Positions 7,232-19,746 of a DNA stretch of 64,000 bases are shown one piece after another. The notes under the pieces are model-generated. The model searched no databases. It was not told where the DNA came from and saw nothing but the letters and a program-made list of their open reading frames with translations. Position 1 is the stretch's first letter. Each line of letters starts with the position of its first letter. Source of the DNA: Nitrosopumilaceae archaeon (GTDB lineage Archaea > Thermoproteota > Nitrososphaeria > Nitrososphaerales > Nitrosopumilaceae); the NCBI GenBank assembly GCA_965207375.1, contig OZ242274.1:1664001-1728000 (forward strand), read 5' to 3'. A program made the translations under genes and the position numbers.

Positions 7232-7287
7232 GAGATATGTTAGTTCTTTTTGCACTCAAATATGTAGTTTCAGATAAAAAAAGGAGG

Positions 7288-8643
7288 TTAGCCTTTAATC
7301 CATTTTGTAGCATCAGATGTTACAAAATATGACATGGTTCCACAGTTCTGTATGCGTCCGCCACAACCTTTATCGGTTTTAAGATATTTGTTATAGCTTG
7401 CCTTGCCAAGTCCTGTATCTGAGATGGAATTTTTTCCATATCCAATTATAATTTCACCCTTGACTGTATTTAGGGCTACAGAGTCATCAGATTGTGAAAT
7501 TGCTTCTACATGCAATCCGTTATCAACATACTTGTGCATCCCACTAGGTATTACATCTAGGGTAATCGTGCCAGTTTTTGTCTGTTCTTTTGTAAAGTTG
7601 CAAGTTCCTGATTCGCAATTGAAGATTTTTACTTTGGCTGTGACGGTATGCTTTTTATCTACTTTTTTCCATCCACCTGCTTCGGCACACGGTAAAAGGA
7701 AACTACAGGTCATTGGTTCTCCAGTAACCGGGTCAATACCTTGATTTTTTTCAAACTCTTTGATTGCTTGTAACTGTTCAGGTGTTGTTTTAGGAAGTTT
7801 GGCATTTGCATACATGGATTCCGAGTCACAATCTGATTCATACATACAAACTGCAGCCCCGGTTATACTCATCCAATAATGCGGATCATTGCCGGATAGC
7901 TCAGGTGGAACATTTCCATGCTGAGCCATGGTGTTTAATGATCTTACCATTTTTTTGGTAAATACCTCAAGATTCTTATCTCCAACAATGTCTAAAATCC
8001 TCTCATTGATTTGCTTCTTTGTATCTGGAGATGGATATTTTTGAGTTGCCCATTTGTGGTATTTTGTTACGGGTTCTGTGGCATTGTAATTTCCATTCAT
8101 CTTTTGTTTGGCAACGTAAAGAGATACTAATTCATGACCATGTCCTTTTTTTCCTATGATGGATTCAAAGTTATGTTGTTTGATCTGCTCTTTTACCATC
8201 TTTTTATTCCATTCATTTTTTGGCAGATCTGCATCTACATAGGCTTCAATCTCGGATTGGGCTGCGTCAAACTCCTCCTGAGTAGAATAGTACGATTGCC
8301 ATTTTTCACCGATTCTTTTAATGAGTTTGTTGGTGGAAATTGTTTTTTCAGATTTGGATACATCCACTAATCTCTGATACAGAGCATCAACGTGATTTTT
8401 AAGTTCATTAATTTCTCTGGCAAGTTTATCAATCCTGTCTGGGTTTGTTATTTCTTCTAGCTGAGCTGTTTTTTGCTCGATTAATGCCTCTTTTTTTGCT
8501 ATCTTTTGCTCTAGTTTTCCGATTCTAGGATTTACATCACCTTCATCTGCTACTGCCACATTCATTGATGAAAATGGTAGAATCATTGCAGTGATTAGGG
8601 CTGCAAATAGTATTGTTTTTGTTTTGCTTGTTATGTTTTTCAA
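7288..8643 (-). CDS. Secreted hypothetical protein (signal peptide, coiled coil, Cys-containing C-terminal domain)
   Basis: 451-aa ORF with N-terminus MKNITSKTKTILFAALITAMILPFSSMNVAVA. Confidence 0.75.
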   Translation of the reverse strand: MKNITSKTKTILFAALITAMILPFSSMNVAVADEGDVNPRIGKLEQKIAKKEALIEQKTAQLEEITNPDRIDKLAREINELKNHVDALYQRLVDVSKSEKTISTNKLIKRIGEKWQSYYSTQEEFDAAQSEIEAYVDADLPKNEWNKKMVKEQIKQHNFESIIGKKGHGHELVSLYVAKQKMNGNYNATEPVTKYHKWATQKYPSPDTKKQINERILDIVGDKNLEVFTKKMVRSLNTMAQHGNVPPELSGNDPHYWMSITGAAVCMYESDCDSESMYANAKLPKTTPEQLQAIKEFEKNQGIDPVTGEPMTCSFLLPCAEAGGWKKVDKKHTVTAKVKIFNCESGTCNFTKEQTKTGTITLDVIPSGMHKYVDNGLHVEAISQSDDSVALNTVKGEIIIGYGKNSISDTGLGKASYNKYLKTDKGCGGRIQNCGTMSYFVTSDATKWIKG

Positions 8644-8822
8644 TGTGATTATATTCCATTTACACTTGCATTATATTAAATTTGATATTAACTTACGGCA
8701 TGCTTCTTTTAAAATACTACATATTGCTCATTTTTACATTAAATATTTTTTCTAGAGATAAACTCTCATAAGAGTTTGACATGTTTTAAATTAGGCTAAC
8801 ATAACTACATGTATTGAAAAAA
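8557..8822 (+). repeat. 266-bp inverted repeat, copy 1 (bidirectional promoter plus both gene starts)
   Basis: Reverse complement of 10269..10534; no mismatch seen on manual comparison. Confidence 0.9.
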
Positions 8823-9194
8823 CTATTCCTTACAAGTATTATAATTAACATTGGTTTGGTAATTGGAGTCATATTTTCCTTGTCTTTACTATATGATGAA
8901 GTTTTCAAACTAGAAGGCGACTGTGATGTTACAAAGGAACATGCAAAATTAATTGCAGAATATGGCAAAAGATATCATGACCTTCCACTAGAAGAAAGAA
9001 CTGCATTGGATAATGAATTTAATATGATCCAGGCCAATTTTGATATAAAGAACGGCAATGGCACGCAGGAAGAGTTTGATGCAGAATATTACAAATTATT
9101 AGACAGGTATGATATTGTGGAAGTTGGGTATGCCCAAGATGAGCGGCAAGAACTATTTTATCGCCTAGTACACTTGTGTAGTGATTATAGTTAA
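8814..9194 (+). CDS. Small membrane-anchored two-Cys protein, paralogue 1
   Basis: N-terminal TM helix; DCDVTKEHAKLIAE.GKRYH ... LHLCSDY shared with two paralogues. Confidence 0.75.
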   Translation: MKKLFLTSIIINIGLVIGVIFSLSLLYDEVFKLEGDCDVTKEHAKLIAEYGKRYHDLPLEERTALDNEFNMIQANFDIKNGNGTQEEFDAEYYKLLDRYDIVEVGYAQDERQELFYRLVHLCSDYS

Positions 9195-9215
9195 TGTGTA
9201 GTGATTTTAAAAAAA

Positions 9216-9297
9216 GTACTTGTTCACCTCATACCTAATTTTTCAATCATTACATCACCATCTGGGTACAAATTAACTCCATTACGTGAACCAGTAC
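9216..9297. mobile_element. MITE family A (82 bp, TIR GTACTTGTTCAC)
   Basis: Homologous to 49727..49808 and 18963..19045; flanks taaaaaaa/taaaaaag (7/8 TSD). Confidence 0.8.
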
Positions 9298-9549
9298 TAA
9301 AAAAGAATGGAACCCAAATTCCTGAAAAAAAAAGCCTAGTGTGCCCCCCCCACATCTTGGACCAAATTAGGCACAATGTGCCTGTTTAGTTGCATTTTTG
9401 TTATGTTTGGTAACGTATAGGATCAAAAAAATTAGAATTTACAATACAAAAGATGACGTGTCTAAAGGCAATTGTGATACAACATCTAAAGGCACATCAA
9501 GATACACTTGATAATGCCATATTTAACTGCCCATGTTGAGAGGCCGATA

Positions 9550-9872
9550 TTTTATGAAGCCATCCCCAGGGGTAAAGAGAGGAATAGAGTTTCTCAAAGG
9601 TACCACTACATCTGAGATGGAACATCGTCTAAAGGTAGAGCCCTCAGGCAAGCCGCGTGAGTGGCTACAGACAACATTGCTGCGCAGACAGGGCCTAGAC
9701 CTAGAATCTATACGTAAAATCCTAGGACGAGGTAAGGGCAGCATCTCAAGATGGCTAAACCAGATGTAGAAAGAGGGAGCCTGATGCAATACTTGACGGT
9801 AAGAGTACCGGAAGATCGTGCAAGATCTTAGGCGACAGTCAGAAAGCGTTTCGTTCTTTTTTACGATTACTA
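9550..9872 (+). pseudogene. Degenerate IS630-like transposase N-terminal HTH fragment
   Basis: LLRRQGLDLESIRKILGRGKGSISRWL, then a stop and frameshift into DAILDGKSTGRSCK. The 3' end resembles 38085..38130. Confidence 0.5.
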
Positions 9873-9917
9873 AGTACTATATGTTATGTTTTCAAGCAAT
9901 TTGTAACTGTAGACGCG

Positions 9918-10277
9918 CTAATTGCCGTAATCACTACACAAGTGTAGTAGATTATAAAACAGATATTGTTGTTGGGTAGAAGAATACCAAACACCCACAA
10001 TACCATACTTGCTTAATACTATATCGGTTTCTATATCGCGTTCTTCTTGAGTTTCACCTGTAACAATTATATCAAATTCTTGATCAAATGCAGCTCTTTC
10101 CTCTAGTGAAAGGTGATGATATCTTTTACCGAATTCTGCAATTAATTTTGCATGTTCTTTTGTAACATCACAGTCATCGTCTGGTTTAAAATTTTCATCA
10201 TACAGTAATGATAAGGAAAGTATGATTACGATTGCCAAACCGATGTTGATTATCATACTTGCAAATAATTTTTTCAA
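9918..10277 (-). CDS. Small membrane-anchored two-Cys protein, paralogue 2 (divergent)
   Basis: Same motifs as 8814..9194, with a different central and C-terminal segment. Confidence 0.75.
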   Translation of the reverse strand: MKKLFASMIINIGLAIVIILSLSLLYDENFKPDDDCDVTKEHAKLIAEFGKRYHHLSLEERAAFDQEFDIIVTGETQEERDIETDIVLSKYGIVGVWYSSTQQQYLFYNLLHLCSDYGN

Positions 10278-10534
10278 TACATGTAGTTATGTTAGCCTAA
10301 TTTAAAACATGTCAAACTCTTATGAGAGTTTATCTCTAGAAAAAATATTTAATGTAAAAATGAGCAATATGTAGTATTTTAAAAGAAGCATGCCGTAAGT
10401 TAATATCAAATTTAATATAATGCAAGTGTAAATGGAATATAATCACATTGAAAAACATAACAAGCAAAACAAAAACAATACTATTTGCAGCCCTAATCAC
10501 TGCAATGATTCTACCATTTTCATCAATGAATGTG
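10269..10534 (-). repeat. 266-bp inverted repeat, copy 2
   Basis: Reverse complement of 8557..8822. Confidence 0.9.
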
Positions 10535-10600
10535 CCTAGAATGGCATATGTAGGAATCATAGACCTAGTCTCTTACCAATCAGGCACGGCAACACCTTAA
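10448..10600 (+). pseudogene. Truncated copy of the 7288..8643 gene (signal peptide only, 50 codons)
   Basis: First 29 codons are identical to the large secreted protein, followed by unrelated sequence and TAA. Confidence 0.75.
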
Positions 10601-11144
10601 TGGTAGGATCCATCATTTCGATCTTTATTGTGAATACTACGCCTAGATTTACTCTATTCTTTTGTGACCCTTCAAATTCATGCCTAAAATCACCATAACC
10701 CCAAAACAATGTTTACCAATTACAAAAAAAAGATGAAAACAGATATTGTGGAAAAAGTTGTATTCGTCAATAAGGGACACGTGATATGTTCTAGAGATCG
10801 ACTAATTGAGGTGCACTCGTCATTTTTGCATGATTATTCTTAGAGTTATTAATATGACATAATATTTAGACATGAATTTTTTATTTTGTAAAATAGATTT
10901 TATTAAATAACATAATTATTACATGTTTGTTCCTGTCATATTTTATTTTTTAATTATTCTATTATCATTTGAGCCTAAATCCACTCATGCATGAACAAGT
11001 ACATTCATCAGAAATACAAATAGTTAGTATTTTTTTAAAATTTTTATTGTGTTTGTAAAAAAATATAATCTCTTTACAATGTGTATTTTTTATTTATGAT
11101 GCAAGTTTGACATGTTTTAAATTAGGTCAACATAACGACAAGTA

Positions 11145-11525
11145 TTGAAAAAACTATTACTTACAAGCATTATAATCAACATTGGTTTGGTAATTGGAGT
11201 CATATTTTCCTTGTCCTTACTATACGATGAAGTTTTCAAACTAGAAGGTGACTGTGATGTTACAAAGGAACATGCAAAATTAATTGCAGAATATGGCAAA
11301 AGATATCATGACCTTCCACTAGAAGAAAGAACTGCATTGGATAATGAATTTAATATGATCCAGGCCAATTTTGATATAAAGAACGGCAATGGCACGCAGG
11401 AAGAGTTTGATGCAGAATATTACAAATTATTAGACAGGTATGGTATTGTGGCATTTTGGTATTCCGAAGATGAGCTACAAGAACTATTTTATCGCCTAGT
11501 ACACTTGTGTAGTGATTATAGTTAA
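11145..11525 (+). CDS. Small membrane-anchored two-Cys protein, paralogue 3
   Basis: Near-identical to 8814..9194 except for a C-terminal window. Confidence 0.75.
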   Translation: MKKLLLTSIIINIGLVIGVIFSLSLLYDEVFKLEGDCDVTKEHAKLIAEYGKRYHDLPLEERTALDNEFNMIQANFDIKNGNGTQEEFDAEYYKLLDRYGIVAFWYSEDELQELFYRLVHLCSDYS

Positions 11526-11574
11526 TGCATCAATAACATCATGTCTAAATTTTTATTCTATCTGATGAAAGTGA

Positions 11575-11870
11575 TTTTGTATATGAAATTTGAGCTGCGT
11601 TACAAGATTACGTGAAACTCTTACGTTAATGCCAACACTGTCTAAACTATTGAAAGATGCTTAAGATTCACTGCTATATGTCCAATTTTAGGTACGGTTC
11701 ATACAAACGCGTAGCACAGGACCTAAAGATCCATTGTGAAAGACATGAGAGGAGATTCGTAATTAGAAAATCACGCCTAACAAGAGCAAAAATCCGTGCC
11801 CAGATCTAATTACGAATCCTGTCTATGATAGATTTTTGTATATGAAATTTGAGCTGCGTTACAAGATTAC
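11575..11870 (+). repeat. 37-bp direct repeat pair (11575..11611, 11834..11870) enclosing a 14-bp inverted-repeat element
   Basis: ttttgtatatgaaatttgagctgcgttacaagattac occurs twice; gattcgtaattaga...tctaattacgaatc lies at ~11754..11818. Confidence 0.8.
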
Positions 11871-12020
11871 ATGTAATTGCTTATACTTGCAACAAGAATC
11901 CATAATTTCTCATTACTTTTTCATATCTGATGTATTCGTCAATCTACTAGATGATGTCAGAAATATTGGAATTTTTATCCATCTAAAACTCATAAATTCA
12001 AACATTAACCCATAAACAAT

Positions 12021-12698
12021 ATGAAAACCCTGATAATACCTGATATTCACACAAAATTTCAGATTGCAGAATCAATCATAAAAAGTGAATCACCAGACAG
12101 TATTGTATTTTTAGGGGACTATTTTGATGCATTTAATGAGACTGAACAAGACACTCACAATACTGCAAGATGGCTTGCAACATCACTGCAACAGCAAAAC
12201 AGAATACATTTGATTGGAAATCACGACCTGCCATACATGGCTGACAATCCAGTGTTTTTGTGTTCGGGATTCTCCGAATCTAAAAAATACATTATCAACT
12301 TGTATGATATACCGTGGAATAAAATGCACACATACTGCTATGTTGGAGACCATCTGTGTACCCATGCAGGAGTAAGCAAACAGTTCTTTGAAGAGCACAG
12401 TACAGATACTCTTAACGAGTTTATGAAACAATCAACAGAGGATCTCAAACATATTGATGATGTAAATTATTTACAAAAGTTTTTCCGTGCAGGAGTTTTG
12501 CGCGGTGGTGTGCACAAAAATGGAGGCATAGTATGGTGTGATTATAACGAATTTACGGACATTCCACATATTAAACAGATATTTGGCCACACAAGAGCCA
12601 CAAATGTAAGACAAAACAAAAATCACATCTGTCTTGATACTGAACTACACAACTATATCATACATCAAGACAGTACCTTAATTGTAAAAGAGATATAA
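12021..12698 (+). CDS. Calcineurin-like metallophosphoesterase
   Basis: DIH, GDYFD, GNHD, THAG and GHT motifs. Confidence 0.9.
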   Translation: MKTLIIPDIHTKFQIAESIIKSESPDSIVFLGDYFDAFNETEQDTHNTARWLATSLQQQNRIHLIGNHDLPYMADNPVFLCSGFSESKKYIINLYDIPWNKMHTYCYVGDHLCTHAGVSKQFFEEHSTDTLNEFMKQSTEDLKHIDDVNYLQKFFRAGVLRGGVHKNGGIVWCDYNEFTDIPHIKQIFGHTRATNVRQNKNHICLDTELHNYIIHQDSTLIVKEI

Positions 12699-13160
12699 AT
12701 TTACAAATTCAATAATTTATGCATGTGGTACAATTGAGGAATGTCAAACATATCAAGTTTAAGATTAGAAAAAATGGCAGTTAACTCGTACCAAATCACA
12801 TTATCGTACTTGTAAAAAACAATCAGGACACAATACATCAAAACAGAGCATCACAAAATCTACTAATATTTACAACACATACAGACACAATTGATATAGA
12901 AAATACACTAAAATCATTTTGCCAAGAATTGAAACAAACCCAATGAAATAATCATGTTAAATATGCAGCAGGTTCTTTAGGCTTTATTGCAGATATCAAC
13001 GGTTGGGTTTTTGATCAAATCATTTGAATTCATGTACTCTAGATAAATTGTTATACGTCAGATGCCACATCTAAAATCTTTGACAGATAATTTGTGTAAA
13101 AATGAACAGTGTAATACTAGTGATTAATCTGATTTGAACAATTTAAAAGAAGATAAAAAG

Positions 13161-13208
13161 TACGGTGCCCGAGCGTATTGGTGATTTATTCTTCTGAAGG
13201 GTACCGTA
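13161..13208 (-). ncRNA. Putative small hairpin RNA antisense to the adjacent tRNA
   Basis: 10-bp terminal stem; loop carries 10-nt and 13-nt exact matches to tRNA 13270..13279 and 13283..13295; minus-strand TTTTTAA ~24 nt upstream and a U-rich tract downstream. Strand is inferred. Confidence 0.55.
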
Positions 13209-13237
13209 TTTATAATGAGTAACAAGCCTGTTAAAAA
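13209..13237. promoter_or_regulatory. Putative overlapping divergent TATA boxes
   Basis: TTTATAAT (+, 13209..13216) upstream of the tRNA; TTTTTAA (-, 13237..13231) upstream of the hairpin. Confidence 0.5.
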
Positions 13238-13241
13238 CATT

Positions 13242-13325
13242 GCCGAGATCGCCTAGTCTGGTAAGGCGCTCTTCTGAAGAAAGAGCGTATTGGTGTACGC
13301 GTGGGTTCGAATCCCACTCTCGGCG
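13242..13325 (+). tRNA. Class II tRNA with Ser-type body and GAA (Phe) anticodon
   Basis: Complete cloverleaf: GCCGAGA/TCTCGGC, D stem GCCT/AGGC, anticodon stem CTCTT/AAGAG with loop CT-GAA-GA, long variable arm, T arm GTGGG-TTCGAAT-CCCAC, G73. Confidence 0.88.
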
Positions 13326-13447
13326 CTTGTTTGATTATCTGATAATTTCGTTTAACCAAAGATGTCAATTCTTTGACATGTGCAACTGTTAATGCGTGTG
13401 TGATAAAATGCCATGATGATTATTTTGTTTAAAGGTGTTTGAAAAAT

Positions 13448-13512
13448 GATTCTTCAGCGTTATCTGTTGGTCAAAGTCAATATGCAAATTTTCTCCGGAT
13501 TGCCCGTGCCTA
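13448..13512 (+). repeat. Dispersed ~65-bp repeat, probably a transposase 3' remnant
   Basis: Near-identical to 62945..63009; shares gattcttcagcgttatct with the IS-end remnant at ~18801..18840 (minus strand). Confidence 0.6.
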
Positions 13513-13926
13513 AAATTTCTTCAATTGTCACATAGTTTGTTCTTGTGCAGGTAAAAGAGATCAAAAATTTAACCATTTTTTCAAAATTTGTTAACCTACA
13601 TGATCCAAATGTATCACGACATGTAGTCCCATCGAAGTATCACAATGATGGGACTAACATATCAAAAATCATATACAAGATCAAAATTTAAACTACACAA
13701 AAAATTTAAAGATATATGGAATAAGACATCGGTACTGCTTACGCGCAGTACTGACAAAATGGCAAGAGTTACTAGATGGATGAGTACACGTGTATCTTGG
13801 AGCAAGGGTGCACAAGGGCGTGGAAACCGTGCCTTGAAAATACTGAATACATAAAATTGGTGCGGACCCCGCTAGAAGGAGACCGATCATCAATGTACAC
13901 TTTAGCAATAGGAGGCAACACAGGAC

Positions 13927-14223
13927 ATGAAAGACAAAAAATCAAAATGGAGCATAGATGAGAAGGTACGTATCGTACTGCAGACCTTTAACTCAGAGAC
14001 CAGTATGGCAGAATTATGCAGACAGCACAACCTGCAACCCAGAACAGTCTATACCTGGAAGGAAAAATTCCTCGAAGCAGGCAAAAGCTCGTTTAGTGGC
14101 TCCAATGTGTCCTCCCTTGCCAAACGTCACAAAAAAGAGATCTCTTCTCTTAAGAGGATAATAGGAGAGTATGCAGTGGCAAATGACGCTTTAAAAAAAA
14201 CGTTGGAGGGAAACAAAGAATGA
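13927..14223 (+). CDS. IS3-family OrfA (HTH)
   Basis: WSIDEKVRIVL...AELCRQHNLQPRTVYTWKEKF; A8 slippery run at ~14193 before OrfB. Confidence 0.85.
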   Translation: MKDKKSKWSIDEKVRIVLQTFNSETSMAELCRQHNLQPRTVYTWKEKFLEAGKSSFSGSNVSSLAKRHKKEISSLKRIIGEYAVANDALKKTLEGNKE

Positions 14224-14432
14224 GTGCAGTGTCTATCATGCACGATATCATAGGACTCAACAAATCCTTGCGGCTTTGCGGAGTATCAAAAAAGGCATGG
14301 TACTATACTGCAAGTCCAAGAGACATACCACCTGATCCGCAGGTACAAGATGCAATACTAAACATCAGCTCATCTAGGTCAACCTATGGAACACGACGTA
14401 TGGCAGCACAGGTCTCTAGGGTTCTAGGCAGG
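14220..14432 (+). pseudogene. IS3-family OrfB, truncated
   Basis: GVSKKAWYY...TYGTRRMAAQV, then runs into an IS5 terminal sequence via the microhomology tctaggcagg. The DDE domain is missing. Confidence 0.75.
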
Positions 14433-14471
14433 GTTATAACACAAACTAATATATCGTAGTTAGTGTTATAA

Positions 14472-15747
14472 CAGTACTTCCGATTATAGATCACAGGTCA
14501 CTATTTAGACAATATTTTTTGACATACAGATCCAAATAACGGAATAATCCTACCCATCTTAACCTTGAGAGAAAAAGATGGGCAAGATATCCCAATAAAA
14601 TCAGGAACACGAGGGTTTAAAGTATTTCAATCTGCACTAGGCAGGCTGCCCATTTCGTTTGGAACAGGAAACAACACGAGGTATGGACTCTCAAACGCAG
14701 TCAACATGCTACAGGTCATGTCAGTATACGGCGTGGCTGCCAACAGTGCACACCAATACGCTCCTTCAGGAATAGATATTCCAGGCGGAGACTGGCTTGT
14801 ACAAAAGATAACCACAATCGATCATGACGACATGATAAAACATGGAGAAAAGATGATACACGATACTGTTGATGTACGCCAAATGAAGCTGGACCGCAGA
14901 AACGGCAACAACCAGACGCGCGTTGCAGCAATAGACAAACACAAGATCCCACACTATGACAAAGACCCTGACATGACAGATATGGTATACTCAAAGCATC
15001 ATGCAGGAACATACGTCTTTGAAGCATACATGACTGCCAAGATGGTCTCAGGTGCAAAAGAATTTCATCTTGCAATGGTTCCAGTAACTCGGAACAAGTT
15101 TAACCCTGAATTCGTGCGTAAAACCATACAAAAATGCGATGATTTAGGTGCTGATGTGAACATATACTTGTTGGACCGTGAGTTTTATGCATCTGATGTT
15201 ATGGATACAATACAGAATCTCAAAAAACATTTCATAATGCCTGCAGTAAAGAATGCGGGAATCAAAAAGGCAATATTTCAATATGCCCAAGGAAAGCGCG
15301 ATGCAATATCACAGTATACCTTTGATAATGGATTTGAATTTAATTTGATCATAGTACCAAATCCCAAAAAACCTGATGCAAAAAATATCTTTGAGAGATA
15401 TCATGTGTTTGCAACATCATTGCCGTGTACAGATTCTGATGACATGTTGAAATACATTCCTAAAGCATACAAAACGAGGTGGGGGATTGAGACTGGATAT
15501 AAACAGGCAAAATCTATACGTCCATACACCACAAGCAAGAATTCCTCAATGCGGATGTTGATGTTTGTTGTATCTGTAATCCTATCTAACATATGGATAG
15601 ATTCGCGGATAGAGGTTGCCCATCAGACATACAATATTACACTTGTAGCCTTTGTAATGCAGATGGCTCATGCATATTTTGAGTGTCACTCAACTTGGCC
15701 GCCCCCCAATAAATCGGCATAGTCTGGATTTAAAATCGGAAGTACTG
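14472..15747 (+). mobile_element. ISH3-like (IS4 superfamily) element
   Basis: 14-bp TIR CAGTACTTCCGATT; 5-bp TSD TATAA (14467..14471 and 15748..15752). Confidence 0.85.
14565..15722 (+). CDS. ISH3-like DDE transposase
   Basis: AAIDKH, LLDREFY and YKTRWGIETGYK (YREK) motifs. Confidence 0.9.
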   Translation: MREKDGQDIPIKSGTRGFKVFQSALGRLPISFGTGNNTRYGLSNAVNMLQVMSVYGVAANSAHQYAPSGIDIPGGDWLVQKITTIDHDDMIKHGEKMIHDTVDVRQMKLDRRNGNNQTRVAAIDKHKIPHYDKDPDMTDMVYSKHHAGTYVFEAYMTAKMVSGAKEFHLAMVPVTRNKFNPEFVRKTIQKCDDLGADVNIYLLDREFYASDVMDTIQNLKKHFIMPAVKNAGIKKAIFQYAQGKRDAISQYTFDNGFEFNLIIVPNPKKPDAKNIFERYHVFATSLPCTDSDDMLKYIPKAYKTRWGIETGYKQAKSIRPYTTSKNSSMRMLMFVVSVILSNIWIDSRIEVAHQTYNITLVAFVMQMAHAYFECHSTWPPPNKSA

Positions 15748-15806
15748 TATAACCCCTCTCTATTTCCACATGAGGGACATAGTACACCAATGTTCAAGTC
15801 GTATGT

Positions 15807-16916
15807 TTATGCTATTGCCCTCCTTTGTACCTGTAACATCTTGTTGTAGATGTGTACCTTGAGATTAATCTCTTGTATGATGTTTTCCCACGTTACAGCA
15901 GATACCGAATCACCAAACAGTCGCTTAATTGATGATATTACTATCTCAACTATCCATCTTTTGCCATATTGCACCCTTTTTTTCCAGACCTTCCTGTTTG
16001 CCTCGCGTTCTTCTTTTGTCAGATGTGCAAATTTTTTAGGATCTGATACACCACCACCTAGTTGATCAATGGCTGCAAGAGTACGATCCCTACTGACACC
16101 ATCTGAACGCGTATTTGCATTGTGTTTTATTCTGATGCATGGTTTGATTTTTAGCTTTTTACATAATGCAAATATTTTACGCGAGTCAAATCCACCGTCT
16201 GCCCGCACGACTATTTTTAATTCATCCAATAATTCATTATTCAGAGATTGATATTCTTGCATGTCGTCTTCATCTTTCTGTGAATCTGCAATTGGATGTT
16301 CTGGGTCATCTGCTTTTTGACATGCTGATTGATCCTCATTTGATTTCTCTGCTTGGTTAATTCTGTCTGCAACATCTATACCGCAGTTTTCTAGTGCAGT
16401 ACACGTAAGTTCCTCAAACTGTGGGGCCTCACCTATCCTTTCATCTGTTACGCTAAAGGAGAGTATCTCACGCGTGTCAGTATCTACAACAATGACAAAC
16501 CTGATGAATCCGTGCTGTACTTTGTGCCTGTACCTGATGTATTCGCTTCTCTTACTGGGACTGAGACCAGTACCATCAGGTGCAAGATGAAGTGCACTCT
16601 TTTTGCCTTGTGCCGTAATGAGGTCATCTTTGATTGACACCTTGACGGTTTTCATTCTTTTTTGGATCTGACTAAAGCTTGGAACATACTCTGTACCTAG
16701 TGCCTCTGTTGCAAAGCCTTCTAGTATGCGATAGGATAATCCACAAAATGCCCTCATTGTTGCAAGAGCTAGTATTGTAGATTCTGCGTATCTGTAAGGG
16801 TGACCGTTTTTCTTTTTGTTGGCTCTTTTGAGTTCATCGTCATGATCTGGATTTTTTTTGGGATATATCATGCGTCCAACTGCTAGATATCTTGCATCGT
16901 TTTGTGCATTGGTCAT
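15807..16916 (-). CDS. IS5-family DDE transposase
   Basis: LSYRILEGF, PDGTGL, ADGGFDS and YGKRWIVEIVISSIKRLFG motifs; contains an acidic insertion. Confidence 0.88.
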   Translation of the reverse strand: MTNAQNDARYLAVGRMIYPKKNPDHDDELKRANKKKNGHPYRYAESTILALATMRAFCGLSYRILEGFATEALGTEYVPSFSQIQKRMKTVKVSIKDDLITAQGKKSALHLAPDGTGLSPSKRSEYIRYRHKVQHGFIRFVIVVDTDTREILSFSVTDERIGEAPQFEELTCTALENCGIDVADRINQAEKSNEDQSACQKADDPEHPIADSQKDEDDMQEYQSLNNELLDELKIVVRADGGFDSRKIFALCKKLKIKPCIRIKHNANTRSDGVSRDRTLAAIDQLGGGVSDPKKFAHLTKEEREANRKVWKKRVQYGKRWIVEIVISSIKRLFGDSVSAVTWENIIQEINLKVHIYNKMLQVQRRAIA

Positions 16917-17244
16917 CTTTAGACGTGATTTTTGCTTTGGTTTACTCTAAACTTTTTGCTCTGTCAATATTGTGACCTCCTGTAAATCATGTACCAGGCG
17001 TTGCCGAAGATTTTATACCTCCTTGGTTTGTATTGTATCAGGATTGTTTGCTCATCTCTTATGTGCAATCTGAGATGAGTAGGCAATCCTACTATTTGGA
17101 TCTGAAAGGTCAAACTTTGTCTATTATATCATCAAATTGATTTCTCCCAGACCGAATCTGGCCTGAAAATTGCAAATTTTGAAAAATTCTAGGCAGGGTT
17201 ATAACACAAACTAATATATCGGTTATCCTTAAATGCTTAGTAAG

Positions 17245-17262
17245 TTACCGATATATCGGTAA
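17245..17262. promoter_or_regulatory. Perfect 18-bp palindrome TTACCGATATATCGGTAA, putative operator
   Basis: Lies upstream of TATA-like TATTTAAG and the HTH gene; related partial sites at 17214 and 17283. Confidence 0.65.
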
Positions 17263-17293
17263 TACATACACTATTTAAGACATACCGATACAT

Positions 17294-17902
17294 ATGATGA
17301 AGATGCCTGAAAAAAGAGGGCTAGTAAGAGAAAGAATAATTCGAGTATTGCTCAACACTCCCGGCGGCAACCTTACAAAATACCGAGTAGCAAAATTAGC
17401 AAAAGCTGCATACTCTTGGGTTCATGACTTTCTCAAAGATCTAGAAAATAAGGGTTTGATAAAAAACACCAGAGTAAACTATAGAGAACTTGTTTCACTT
17501 TGGAGAGCGTTTCGGATAGTTCCAAACAAGAAAGAATACATGGTAAAAAATCCACTTGAAATTCTCAAATCTACAAAGCTAAAGTATGCACTTACCACAT
17601 ACGCAGCAGAAAACCTAGTACAAAAGTATCTTTTCCCATCCCGAATAGACTTTTACATTGATCCAAAAGACAAAGTAAAATGGCACAACATTCTGTCACA
17701 GGAGGGTCTTGTCGGAAAAGGAAATACAAGAATGCTGATTGGAGACACTCATGTTTTTTACAACTTGTCTGAAAAAGAAGGACTCAAGACAGTATCTATT
17801 CCACAGCTGATATTAGATCTACTCTTGGAGGGAGGACCATGTGCCGAGGCAGCAGAGATGTTAATAGAAAAGGAGGAAGAACAAATTGTATACAGAAAAT
17901 GA
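17294..17902 (+). CDS. AbiEi-like HTH antitoxin/regulator
   Basis: N-terminal wHTH; YALTTYAAE; C-terminal PQLILDLL.EGG..AEAAE motif; overlaps the downstream NTase gene. Confidence 0.65.
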   Translation: MMKMPEKRGLVRERIIRVLLNTPGGNLTKYRVAKLAKAAYSWVHDFLKDLENKGLIKNTRVNYRELVSLWRAFRIVPNKKEYMVKNPLEILKSTKLKYALTTYAAENLVQKYLFPSRIDFYIDPKDKVKWHNILSQEGLVGKGNTRMLIGDTHVFYNLSEKEGLKTVSIPQLILDLLLEGGPCAEAAEMLIEKEEEQIVYRK

Positions 17903-18677
17903 GATAGAAATCTCAAAATCAAATCTTTCAACTGTCATTTCAAAGGTTCAAGAACCTGTCTGTTTACTGGGTGGTTGGGCAGTTTACATTACCGTAAATC
18001 AAAGATTTAATGCCGAACAAGGAAGAGATTACATTGGTTCAAGAGACATTGATCTTGGTTTTCACATAGATGATGCTTGGTCTGATGAGCAATTGCAAAA
18101 ATCTGCATTTTCCAAATCAATTGAGATTCTAAAAGAGATGAAATATTATGGAATAGGATCACGTTTTGTCCAACACTATGATCTTCAAACTAAAAGATTC
18201 TTAACAGAAGAAAAGTCTAAAAAGCGTCCCAAATACGAGATGTTTGATCTGTTTGTTGACCCCGTTGTTGACAAAATCCATCCAAGGACAAAGATACTCT
18301 TGGGTTTGGATCCAATCGATGAGCCACTACTTGCAAATGTTTTTTCAGGTAATCAGTTTGTCATGTCAAGATACTTTGAAAAAGAGATAATGCTCCCACA
18401 TCCCGAGGTGTTAGTTTCTATGAAGATAAATTCTGTTCTAAACAGGAACAAAGAGGACAAGAGAATTAAGGACATTGCTGACATTTATTCTCTTATGTGG
18501 TATTCTAACACAAAATTTCCAGACCTAAAACAAAGTGTTCAGAAAATATGCAGTACTGAAAAAGCCTCATTAACAATTTCCAAGTTCACAGATCATGATT
18601 ACAGTTCAGTTTCTCAGGCAATAGGAGTCAACAAGGATGAGATTTCACGAGTAATTGCAGAAACTGCAAAAAAATAA
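17886..18677 (+). CDS. AbiEii-like nucleotidyltransferase toxin
   Basis: LLGGWAV, SRDIDL, MK and KDIADIY motifs. Confidence 0.7.
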   Translation: MYTENEIEISKSNLSTVISKVQEPVCLLGGWAVYITVNQRFNAEQGRDYIGSRDIDLGFHIDDAWSDEQLQKSAFSKSIEILKEMKYYGIGSRFVQHYDLQTKRFLTEEKSKKRPKYEMFDLFVDPVVDKIHPRTKILLGLDPIDEPLLANVFSGNQFVMSRYFEKEIMLPHPEVLVSMKINSVLNRNKEDKRIKDIADIYSLMWYSNTKFPDLKQSVQKICSTEKASLTISKFTDHDYSSVSQAIGVNKDEISRVIAETAKK

Positions 18678-18962
18678 TCTGTTGTTTACTAAATTGCTAG
18701 ATCGGTGATGTTTCACTTTTTGAAGCTCTCTCAAATGGCCATGCGCAACATCCCCTTTCATTGCAATGTGCTATTCCTCAGGATATGATATACAGAAATG
18801 GTACTTGTTCACATAATAGATAACGCTGAAGAATCGTACGATGTGTGTGTTTCTATCATATGTAGAACACAAAATGTCCTCGATACTAGGATCTTTCATA
18901 GGTACATCAAGTAGTCCGTATCCTAACATGTCACGCCGGACATAATATGCCATAAATTCAAT

Positions 18963-19045
18963 GCACTTGTTCACATCATGCCAAATTTTTTAATTACTGT
19001 ATTCATCATTTAGGCACAAATCGACTCGATTACGTGAACAAGTAT
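18963..19045. mobile_element. MITE family A, diverged copy
   Basis: TIR gcacttgttcac/gtgaacaagtat; perfect 8-bp TSD AATTCAAT. Confidence 0.75.
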
Positions 19046-19052
19046 AATTCAA

Positions 19053-19469
19053 TTATTGAAGATATCTTGGTATCTTTTTAACTATGTGAGATAGTGAAAT
19101 TCTACCTGGACCAATTGCAATAATCACAAGGCTAGCAGCTAGTAAAATTAGATCAAACTCATACCCCCTATCGCCGGTAAGACTAGATGCTCCTTTTATC
19201 ACAAATATTGCCCCAATCATTATAATTGAAAGCAACGATGCAGAAATTCTAGTTAGTGCACCTATAATCAGTAAAATTCCAGGTATCAGCTCTGCCAAGG
19301 CAATGAGAATAGCCATTTCTGGTGGCATTCCCTGTTTTGAGACAAATCCTGCAAAGCCTGGATCAAACTTTCCCAAAGAATGCACGATAAAGATAATTCC
19401 TACAACTAGCCTTAAACCAAAATGTGACACGTCATGATATATGGATTGTCGAATTTCAGCAGTTGCCAT
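19053..19469 (-). CDS. DoxX-family membrane protein
   Basis: LRLVVGIIFIVH..GKF, AELIPG.LLIIG.LTR and GYEFDL motifs. Confidence 0.85.
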   Translation of the reverse strand: MATAEIRQSIYHDVSHFGLRLVVGIIFIVHSLGKFDPGFAGFVSKQGMPPEMAILIALAELIPGILLIIGALTRISASLLSIIMIGAIFVIKGASSLTGDRGYEFDLILLAASLVIIAIGPGRISLSHIVKKIPRYLQ

Positions 19470-19746
19470 GAATAATTGAAATTTATTGTTACATATATTG
19501 TATTCCTAATAACATCAAGTGATTCATTTATCATATTATTTTCACAAGATCTACATGATATCACCACATGAGATCTGAGTGATAATCAAAATCTAGGTAA
19601 AAGTTTCTGACTTGTGTATTATTTACCGGTTACAGATCATCTAAAAATATACAATGCACCTAAAACACCTGCACAAATTGAACTCGATACTAGAACAGCA
19701 ATTGCAAAGCCCCTGTTTGCAGATATCCAAGATTTTTCAGACATGG

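Follow-up and report, generated by a model that had tools for sequence, protein, structure and literature searches.

The window analysed here, a stretch of 64,000 nucleotides of contig OZ242274.1 from a Nitrosopumilaceae archaeon, contains at position 13242 a tRNA gene in which a serine-type body is combined with the phenylalanine anticodon GAA. ARAGORN called this gene on the forward strand at 13242-13326 (85 nt) as one of four tRNA genes in the window. The end of this call lay one base beyond that of the match to the Rfam tRNA family RF00005, which covered 13242-13325 over the full length of the model (positions 1-71 of 71) with 55.7 bits, at a gathering score of 29 and an E value of 1.3e-10. 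The window is located on the 2.16-Mb contig C1 of an assembly of four contigs. Because it encodes an archaeal ribosomal-protein operon, a proteasome alpha subunit and a Snf7/CdvB-like gene, and because an archaeal AmoA (382 bits) is encoded in the genome, it was concluded that the host was an ammonia-oxidising archaeon. The coordinates of all features are collected in the table below.

The original prediction, made from the sequence of the window alone, had described the gene as an intact 84-nt cloverleaf with a long variable arm, the acceptor pairs G1-C72, C2-G71 and C3-G70, the discriminator G73 and the loop CU-GAA-GA. All of these elements were found, and the cloverleaf was supported by ARAGORN, by the end-to-end Rfam match and by the sequence itself. 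The three pairs named belong to the acceptor stem GCCGAGA/TCTCGGC, and G73 is the base at 13325. The D arm, TCGCCTAGTCTGGTAAGGCG, forms a stem of 4 bp with the loop AGTCTGGTA; the anticodon stem is CTCTT/AAGAG, and the T arm is GTGGG-TTCGAAT-CCCAC. The bases required for the tertiary structure (U8, A14, G18, G19, U33 and T54-C56, GTTCGAAT) were also present. As a single strand, the tRNA folded with -35.4 kcal/mol (z -3.48), a value equalled by none of 200 shuffled sequences. The gene thus spans bases 1-73 of a full cloverleaf, all helices of which are paired, and is not a fragment or a pseudogene.

To type the body of the tRNA, isotype covariance models were built from 22 serine, 25 leucine and 18 phenylalanine tRNAs taken from this genome and related ones, with the cloverleaf structures supplied by hand. 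The genome's own canonical tRNAs were included in the training sets, so that their scores were high by construction, and the candidate was included in none. The candidate scored 81.9 bits on the serine model, where the true serine tRNAs scored 84.1-100 and the leucine and phenylalanine tRNAs 56.5-66.9. On the leucine model, it scored 56.5 bits (true leucine tRNAs, 99.3-111.8; true serine tRNAs, 46.5-61.1), and on the phenylalanine model 48.4 bits (true tRNA-Phe, 100.8; serine and leucine tRNAs, 27.1-42.8). When the whole genome was scanned with the serine model, the candidate ranked fifth, right behind the four canonical serine tRNAs and above all other tRNAs; the same model gave 3-6 matches per genome in 61 genomes of the family. 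A DNA search of 40 relatives led to the same type: 18 of the 19 loci kept were called serine tRNAs by ARAGORN (14 plain and 4 intron-bearing ones that were mislabelled), and the remaining locus carried only a spurious call.

The position of the variable arm and the discriminator agreed with this assignment. The variable region of the candidate could be aligned without any shift to those of canonical serine tRNAs (alignment A5), and all 22 serine tRNAs of alignment A1 ended in G, whereas all 25 leucine and all 18 phenylalanine tRNAs ended in A. The D arm of the candidate is likewise of the serine type. The candidate does not have the A73 and the D and variable arms typical of a leucine tRNA. 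Of the features of tRNA-Phe, it has G34, A35 and A36, but G73 instead of A73, U20 instead of G20 and a variable region of 15 nt instead of a short loop. Nor is its anticodon one of those of serine (NGA or GCU). The anticodon loop differs from that of tRNA-Ser(GGA) at position 35 and also at position 37, where G replaces A; with both changes, it has the same sequence as the loop of the canonical tRNA-Phe encoded in the genome. Considering these results, it is practically certain that the gene is real and has the shape of a serine tRNA.

The papers cited here by PMC number were consulted in part, and statements about them refer to those parts. Serine identity has been described as residing mainly in the variable arm and G73, independently of the anticodon, and in Haloferax volcanii G73 acts as an antideterminant against LeuRS (Giegé and Eriani 2023, PMC9976931). 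For the SerRSs of Methanosarcina barkeri, G30-C40 is a determinant weaker than G73. The common determinant set of tRNA-Phe comprises G34, A35, A36 and A73, to which G20 is added in Aeropyrum pernix and yeast, and a yeast tRNA-Tyr with a GAA anticodon was mischarged by PheRS (PMC9976931). The identity rules on which the original prediction had relied, namely an anticodon-blind SerRS that recognises the long arm, the action of G73 against LeuRS and the A73 of tRNA-Phe, agree with this source. Because the loop of the candidate is that of tRNA-Phe and three of the four PheRS determinants are present, charging by both SerRS and PheRS is possible.

The support for the GAA anticodon was studied in public sequencing runs. 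Eight runs contained all or part of the stretch 11900-13950, and four of them were compared with the window, in each case as contigs and not as raw reads. In three runs from two studies (X1, X2 and X4), a 1,644-nt contig spanned 12800-13484 and showed no differences from the window in any of them. Since these contigs matched exactly, it may be concluded that GAA was not a sequencing error. In a run from a third study (X5), a diverged copy was found over 13254-13347 with two differences; the listed one, A to G at 13316, changes a U-A pair of the T stem to U-G and keeps the pairing, whereas the position of the other was not listed. This run also contained the region of a hairpin located upstream of the tRNA, with five differences and four gaps. 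It had been argued beforehand that GAA was no single sequencing error because it is repeated in that hairpin. The hairpin and the copy of GAA do exist, but they are a weak argument on this point, which is carried by the sequencing runs.

As had been anticipated, normal serine and phenylalanine tRNAs were found elsewhere in the genome. Among the 68 tRNA calls made by ARAGORN in the assembly (introns allowed), there were serine tRNAs with the anticodons GGA (intron-bearing, like its counterparts in the family), UGA, GCU and CGA, as well as the canonical tRNA-Phe(GAA), which has A73 and a CCA end encoded in the gene. Both sets are thus complete without the candidate, which is surplus to them. One SerRS (TIGR00414, 542 bits, of the common type), one PheRS alpha subunit and one AlaRS are encoded in the genome, so there is no dedicated second synthetase for the candidate. 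Among codons of C1, TTT, TTC, ATA and TTA occur at 31.9, 6.9, 31.3 and 14.9 per 1000, respectively.

Other tRNAs with disagreement between body and anticodon were found both in this genome (G000) and outside it. The host genome contained a UAU gene with the same acceptor stem, GCCGAGA, as the candidate, and a degenerate GAA gene. A relative of the same genus (G004) contained one UAU and two GAA genes, one of which was degenerate, and a relative from another genus (G021) a UAA gene; a further GAA gene was found on a viral contig. All these serine-type relatives scored best on the serine model. The members in G004 and G021 were not syntenic with the candidate, the GAA gene of G004 being approximately 350 kb from the orthologue of the nitroreductase gene that borders the candidate's locus. 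The viral contig (35,326 nt) encoded a large terminase subunit (phrog_675, E 1.7e-64) and an HNH endonuclease, and a contig of the same length with the same tRNA call (L389) was present in IMG/VR as IMGVR_UViG_3300005607_000202. Pieces of the insertion-sequence family that lies beside the candidate were also observed 0.3-2 kb from the UAU gene of the host.

A scan for D arms of this type in metagenomes gave at least 83 matches in at least 80 loci. Among the matches listed, 81 were ordinary serine tRNAs (36 CGA, 28 UGA, 13 GCU and 4 GGA), one was of indeterminate type and one was the serine-type tRNA with GAA on the viral contig. A family pattern with one mismatch allowed matched 350 of 401 genomes, and among the matches listed it was the canonical tRNA-Ser(GGA) in 149 of 151. 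Seven unpublished genomes in this tally and two in that of the serine-model scan contributed counts but no sequences. A pattern of the loop and T arm was found in 114 stretches of genome contigs, of which 80 loci were examined and 22 overlapped an ARAGORN call; these 22 were mostly intron-bearing arginine or phenylalanine tRNAs, or leucine tRNAs. Intron-less GAA genes with an extended variable region were found in Microbacterium (L136), in a metagenome-assembled genome (MAG) of Methanosarcinaceae (L141) and in a Bacteroidetes MAG (L163), the first two of which had mismatched acceptor or anticodon stems when inspected by eye. A search of GenBank phages with the hairpin and the tRNA gave no match, and a DNA search of four relatives from the genus found no close copy of the candidate, of the UAU unit or of the alanine-type units described below.

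To judge whether the relatives were kept as tRNAs, six mismatched and three canonical serine-type tRNAs were aligned (A5), the two degenerate genes being left out. Pairing was found in 97.3% of the cells, and 20 of the 25 pairs changed on both sides, which none of 500 shuffles reached; sliding the partner columns lowered pairing to 41-57%. The acceptor, anticodon and T helices were paired in 100% of the cells. The helix of the variable arm (helix 4) was paired in 91.4%, and all four of its pairs changed on both sides. Because the helices have been kept by compensatory changes, the group has been maintained as folded tRNAs, under selection for structure, rather than decaying. Judged by sequence, it is a small group of serine-type tRNAs with anticodons for common A/U-rich codons, GAA (UUY), UAU (AUA) and UAA (UUA), that is scattered through the accessory DNA of related ammonia-oxidising archaea and one tailed-virus contig.

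A second set of mismatched genes was found in the host genome. Six tRNA-like genes had the alanine-type acceptor stem GGGCCTG/CAGGTCC with G3:U70 and A73, as in the genome's own tRNA-Ala, and carried the anticodon GAA (five copies) or AAG (one copy). The units were 78-97% identical over approximately 180-530 nt including the flanks and scored 34.7-57.9 bits on the phenylalanine model. Each copy was preceded, 74-77 nt upstream, by a same-sense duplicate of its own anticodon arm with 11-16 nt matching exactly, and this duplicate changed together with the arm, so that in the AAG copy AAG was found in both places. An origin of these units by target-site duplication or as tandem tRNA duplicates was considered and set aside; the offset of 74-77 nt would fit a degenerate tandem copy, but the joint change would not be explained.

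The region upstream of the candidate contained a TATA-like sequence, TTTATAA. A TATA-like hexamer was present at -38 to -22 in 20 of the 41 canonical tRNA genes of C1 and in 191 of 5000 random windows; therefore, TTTATAA is likely to be an archaeal promoter, as far as its sequence and position indicate. The T-rich trailer of the candidate was similar to those of the canonical serine genes. Just before the TATA-like box lies the hairpin mentioned above (z -2.28; equally good folds in 6 of 200 shuffles). Its loop includes an exact same-sense copy, GAGCGTATTGGTG, of the part of the tRNA that corresponds to the 3' strand of the anticodon stem and the 5' side of the variable arm, and a second element, TTCTTCTGAAG, that copies the sequence CTCTTCTGAAG around the anticodon. 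The 13-mer GAGCGTATTGGTG occurs six times in the genome, once in the hairpin, once in the tRNA and in four copies of an ISH3-like element. An exact same-sense match of at least 11 nt to the gene's own 150 nt upstream was found for 9 of the 68 ARAGORN calls, and all others had matches of at most 8 nt. Seven of these nine were mismatched tRNAs, namely the candidate and the six alanine-type copies.

Homologous hairpins, also located just before the TATA box, were found upstream of the UAU gene of the host and the UAA gene of G021. Their loops share the consensus GATTTGAC...GGTC, and each hairpin contains a 9-nt complement of the variable arm of its own tRNA, ACTGGAATG in one and ACGGTTATG in the other, so that arm and complement covary. 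The motif TGATTTGA was also present upstream of the candidate, at approximately 13131-13138. In the three members from G004 and in the viral member, no upstream self-match longer than 7 nt was found. A further match to the tRNA lies 1.45 kb downstream: positions 14750-14767, within the ORF of an ISH3-family transposase, match the complement of tRNA bases 38-55 in all but one of 18 positions. This 18-nt stretch was present in four genomic copies of the ISH3-family element. Since the match had a BLAST E value of 0.59 genome-wide, it is suggestive only in being so near the tRNA. Guide RNAs of the C/D-box or H/ACA type were considered for the upstream hairpins and dropped, as no proper boxes were seen by eye. 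A diversity-generating retroelement was also dropped, since no reverse transcriptase was found and the copies were just 11-16 nt long.

The candidate lies in a 12.5-kb island between genes for a DsbA-like protein and a nitroreductase. In G004 and another relative from the genus (G001), these two genes, which are located here at 7255 and 19747, are 0.5-0.7 kb apart, and no tRNA was called in the gap between them; in a third genome (G003), the synteny of the flanks was not kept. Because the syntenic sites of G004 and G001 lack the island, it was concluded that the island had been acquired. The island protein hyp451, the metallophosphoesterase, the two AbiE-like ORFs and DoxX were not found in the flanking stretch searched in these two genomes, and homologues of the metallophosphoesterase were present in G004 and G003 at other, non-syntenic places. 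The accessory, insertion-sequence-rich character that had been attributed to the locus was thus borne out, both by the absence of the island from the two relatives and by the repeat and three transposase genes present in it. The repeat, which begins at approximately 13445 and has more than 11 near-full copies, gave 50 BLAST hits on C1, of which 11 spanned approximately 410 nt at 92-95% identity, and read depth climbed from 133 to thousands at 13446. The genome contains just one copy of the segment 12700-13444, in which the tRNA lies. The transposase genes lie within 3.6 kb of the candidate and the AbiEii-like ORF 4.6 kb away. This ORF matched PADLOC with 20.7 bits (E 3.7e-5) and Pfam AbiEii with an E value of 0.0046, below the family cut-off; together with the overlapping helix-turn-helix ORF it may form a toxin-antitoxin pair, as its weak matches suggest. 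The island also contains the DoxX gene and unassigned ORFs, and no integrase gene was identified in it.

Table. Features of the candidate tRNA gene, its relatives and its surroundings. Coordinates without a locus or contig name are window positions; C1 is the contig of the host genome (G000) that carries the window.
Feature	Coordinates	Strand	Evidence
Class II (long-arm) tRNA, G73, serine-type body, 7/5 acceptor/T arrangement	13242..13325	+	ARAGORN, Rfam, isotype models, fold
Anticodon loop CTGAAGA with U33 and G37; GAA at 13276-13278	13274..13280	+	Sequence
Variable region CGTATTGGTGTACGC, 15 nt, stem of 4-5 bp and 4-nt loop	13286..13300	+	Alignment A5
TATA-like TTTATAA, -33 to -27 from tRNA base 1	13209..13215	+	Sequence
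Upstream hairpin, arms 13160-13170 and 13199-13209	13160..13209	+	Fold, -17.7 kcal/mol
GAGCGTATTGGTG, exact same-sense copy of tRNA bases 42-54	13171..13183	+	Repeat search, self-match scan
TTCTTCTGAAG, copy of tRNA bases 28-38 (CTCTTCTGAAG) at 10 of 11 positions, GAA included	13189..13199	+	Sequence
Serine-type UAU tRNA of the host, G73, acceptor stem GCCGAGA	G000:C1:349758-349841 (L258)	-	Serine model, 74.5 bits
Serine-type GAA tRNA of the host (S2), G73, 14-nt insert after position 37	C1:1996875-1996976 (L004/L065)	+	Serine model, 63.1 bits
UAU member of genus relative G004, G73	L393, C2 of G004, ~381.3 kb		Serine model, 66.8 bits
GAA member of G004, G73	L394, C2 of G004, ~2806.1 kb		Serine model, 78.6 bits
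Degenerate GAA member of G004, acceptor mismatches	L395, C2 of G004, ~702.3 kb		Serine model, 56.8 bits
UAA member of G021 (another genus), G73	L266:486-568, C24 of G021		Serine model, 61.8 bits
GAA tRNA on viral contig, GC-rich, loop CTGAAGA	L290:6102-6187	-	Serine model, 82.8 bits
Alanine-type copies L058-L063	C1 1341225-1341299, 1355322-1355397, 1407365-1407439, 1444064-1444136, 1974998-1975072, 234286-234361	-, -, +, +, -, -	
Accessory island of 12.5 kb between DsbA-like and nitroreductase genes	7256..19746	.	Synteny with G004 and G001
Gene for metallophosphoesterase, ending 543 nt before the tRNA	12021..12698	+	Pfam Metallophos, E 3.7e-9
End piece of repeated insertion-sequence family, ~120 nt past the tRNA	13445..13857	.	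BLAST, read depth
IS3/IS66-like TnpA helix-turn-helix ORF	13927..14223	+	Pfam HTH_Tnp_1, E 5.2e-13; NCBIfam transposase models
ISH3-family transposase gene	14565..15722	+	NCBIfam NF033541, E 1.1e-38
IS5-family transposase gene	15807..16916	-	NCBIfam NF033579, E 3.9e-50; Pfam DDE_Tnp_1
Overlapping ORFs: helix-turn-helix (17294-17902) and AbiEii-like nucleotidyltransferase (17886-18677)	17294..18677	+	Weak matches

Known systems in which the body and anticodon of a tRNA disagree were compared with the candidate. Bacterial allo-tRNAs combine serine identity (a long variable arm with G73 or U73) with many non-serine anticodons, of which UAU is the commonest and a phenylalanine anticodon was seen once; they often lie beside transposon-related genes and toxin-antitoxin systems, and two that were tested inserted serine in Escherichia coli (PMC5389517). 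The candidate shares with them the serine features, the non-serine anticodon and the neighbourhood of transposase genes and a weakly matching AbiEii-like ORF. However, allo-tRNAs are bacterial and have an 8/4 or 9/3 arrangement of acceptor and T stems, whereas the candidate is archaeal, has a relative on a viral contig of archaeal type and has a 7-bp acceptor stem and a 5-bp T stem. In humans, a G35A variant of tRNA-Ser-AGA-2-3 with the anticodon AAA misincorporates serine at phenylalanine codons (PMC12993449, PMC9956149). Like the candidate, it is a serine tRNA that reads phenylalanine codons through A35, but it is a single-base polymorphism of a normal gene, while the candidate has diverged throughout (no intron, other stems, position 37), is borne on an island and belongs to a group of several members.

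The tRNA-ProX/ProRSx system of Streptomyces and Kitasatospora also involves disagreement of body and anticodon and deliberate missense; it differs in having A33, further unusual features and a dedicated second synthetase, whereas the candidate has U33, a normal loop and no second SerRS (PMC11415595). Integration-derived fragments of tRNA genes (van der Gulik et al. 2023, PMC9897764) are likewise extra archaeal tRNA calls in mobile DNA, but they are partial genes, and the candidate is complete with all helices paired. A 2024 review treats cases of encoded mistranslation in yeasts, bacteria and humans, and the only two mentions of archaea in the available part of it are unrelated (PMC11415595). 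The available part of a survey of thaumarchaeal mobile elements (PMC6563490) contained no such tRNA. A search of the literature, covering main texts, found no archaeal or archaeal-virus case of such tRNAs; supplements might list some. The nearest systems described are therefore the bacterial allo-tRNAs and the human tRNA-Ser G35A, from which the present case differs in being archaeal and viral, in its 7/5 arrangement and in exchanging one sense-codon anticodon for another.

The function that these features suggest is translational. The gene arrived with or inside the insertion-sequence-rich island of 12.5 kb and would be transcribed from its own TATA box. The single SerRS, which is of the bacterial type and blind to the anticodon, would recognise the long arm and G73 and charge the tRNA with serine, and the product would rival Phe-tRNA-Phe at UUU and UUC, causing Phe-to-Ser missense. 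Serylation is the best inference from the sequence rather than a certainty, and some charging by PheRS is possible. The chances that the candidate is an acquired accessory tRNA that is expressed, charged by SerRS and used to read UUY as serine were judged to be about even. In view of its location on an island, of the relative found on a viral contig and of what is known from bacteria, a part in mobile-element or virus-host conflict or in addiction fits better than a housekeeping role. A bolder scheme appears improbable; according to it, viruses and archaea would exchange tRNAs with swapped anticodons on anticodon-blind bodies (serine with GAA, UAU or UAA; alanine with GAA or AAG), which would act as conditional toxic tRNAs that scramble the proteome, the upstream hairpins serving as built-in control or antidote.

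Several observations weigh against the decoding of UUY as serine. The codons UUU and UUC together account for 38.8 per 1000 codons on C1 (approximately 3.9%). Because phenylalanine codons are this frequent, efficient insertion of serine at them would be very harmful and strongly selected against, and any activity must be low, conditional or harmful. The candidate has three of the four universal PheRS determinants, together with the G37 of tRNA-Phe, and PheRS may take some or most of it. Its 30-40 pair is U-A, whereas six of the nine aligned serine-type tRNAs, including all three canonical ones, have G-C, and its anticodon stem, A/U-rich and the weakest helix, was incomplete in the minimum-energy fold. 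The isotype models were derived from few, closely related sequences with an effective number of 1.05-1.38. No run typed as RNA was found among the public runs that contain the stretch, which are silent on expression. The exact pattern of the candidate's D arm followed by YTGAAR was found in none of the genome, viral and metagenome contigs scanned, so that the gene in this exact form is rare; the pattern was too narrow, however, in that it demanded a C absent from the relatives in G004 and on the viral contig. Finally, for most allo-tRNA-UAU species, Mukai et al. suggested that they are not used in translation (PMC5389517).

Other explanations were weighed against the reading of UUY as serine. 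A single base separates GAA from the serine anticodon GGA, and GAA might thus be an error of sequencing or assembly, or editing of the transcript at position 35 might restore a serine anticodon. This is very improbable. The identical contigs from three runs and two studies contradict an error, and GAA is also found in independent relatives, on the viral contig and in G004. The case in which the gene would be the sole locus for a serine isoacceptor and be edited back, foreseen in the original prediction, does not apply, because the genome has its own intron-bearing tRNA-Ser(GGA) and does not need the candidate for that role. Editing of tRNAs at position 35 is not known in archaea. The candidate might instead be a faithful, odd-shaped tRNA-Phe, charged with phenylalanine by a PheRS that reads GAA, its serine-type body serving, for example, to evade a nuclease or toxin directed at the usual tRNA-Phe body, or the gene adding capacity to decode phenylalanine codons of A/U-rich mobile DNA. 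The loop CUGAAGA with G37, as in the canonical tRNA-Phe, points in this direction, as do the anticodons GAA, UAU and UAA of the group, which read codons common in this A/U-rich genome, and the member on the viral contig. Reading of common codons is a frequent property of the extra tRNAs found in viruses. The three PheRS determinants present and the mischarged yeast tRNA-Tyr with GAA (PMC9976931) would also agree with charging by PheRS. Against this stand G73 in place of A73, U20 in place of G20, the long arm and the phenylalanine-model score, far below that of the true tRNA-Phe; moreover, the tRNA would remain a good substrate of SerRS, so that charging with phenylalanine alone is unlikely. 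The UAA member would also be left unexplained, as G73 opposes LeuRS and LeuRS ignores the anticodon (PMC9976931). Taken together, faithful decoding of phenylalanine codons seems rather unlikely.

It is also conceivable, if unlikely, that the gene is a silent or decaying relic, that is, a serine tRNA of mobile DNA that underwent a change of the G35A type and is now unexpressed or unused and drifting. The island is riddled with insertion sequences, the anticodon stem is A/U-rich and has lost G30-C40, no RNA-type run was found among the public runs containing the stretch, the candidate was absent from the four genus relatives in the DNA search, and degenerate relatives exist both in the host (S2, with its 14-nt insert) and in G004 (L395, with its acceptor mismatches). 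On the other hand, the five helices are intact and have been kept across the group by two-sided changes, the tertiary bases including GTTCGAAT are all present, and the promoter-like box and trailer resemble those of working genes. Moreover, the diverged copy from the third study differs at just two positions, of which the listed one keeps its pair, and the loop, which departs from that of tRNA-Ser(GGA) at both 35 and 37, matches that of tRNA-Phe, which looks adapted rather than accidental. A non-translational function was the last alternative: a tRNA-shaped RNA or DNA element might provide antisense control of the ISH3-like transposase or serve, hairpin included, as a recombination or attachment site. 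The complementarity of tRNA bases 38-55 to the ISH3-family ORF, the occurrence of the 13-mer core in the hairpin, the concentration of upstream self-matches in mismatched tRNAs and the hairpins of the UAU and UAA genes, which complement their own variable arms and differ in step with them, are consistent with such a function, which Mukai et al. also considered for allo-tRNA-UAU (PMC5389517). However, the 18-nt match has an E value of 0.59 genome-wide, upstream self-matches are not a general feature of the group, since none longer than 7 nt was found in the viral member or in those of G004, the island has no identified integrase gene, and a perfect cloverleaf with tertiary bases and a proper 7-nt loop would be needless for an element of this kind, which makes this function improbable.

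Encoded mistranslation is seen most cleanly in natural tRNAs with an anticodon that does not fit the body. If the candidate is charged with serine, sense-codon ambiguity would extend to the third domain of life, borne by mobile DNA, and a single tRNA with its SerRS and a reporter codon would form a small, testable system for mistranslation as a weapon, an addiction module or a stress response. If it is charged by PheRS instead, it would show how far a synthetase that reads the anticodon tolerates a foreign body.

Some further observations were made on the genome and the island. The three smaller contigs of the assembly, C2 (0.43 Mb), C3 (0.78 Mb) and C4 (0.93 Mb), contained few long ORFs, with 5.8k, 21k and 22.7k codons, respectively, versus 358k on C1 (ATG-started ORFs of at least 300 aa). 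None of the 50 matches of the insertion-sequence repeat starting at 13445 fell on them, and their tRNAs were odd, including a cluster of three threonine tRNAs and a glutamine tRNA, six arginine tRNAs and one Ser(UGA) unlike the archaeal type. These contigs may represent another type of replicon or a different organism binned with the archaeon. Inspection of an alignment of the canonical tRNA-Phe from 18 genomes of the family and order (A3) showed that the T stem (GCGCG/CCCGC, 52-62) carries a C-C mismatch in most of them and is fully paired in two more distant genomes. The N-terminal part of the metallophosphoesterase weakly resembled PdeM, a ligase-associated phosphoesterase (28.2 bits, below the cut-off), as well as a PHROG that bears the annotation RNA ligase (E 2.6e-6). 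The island also contained further repeats; a 60-nt piece at 11742-11801 had 22 matches on C1. Finally, the segments 8786-9194 and 11117-11525 contain two equal-length pairs of ORFs approximately 2.3 kb apart, which suggests a duplicated segment.

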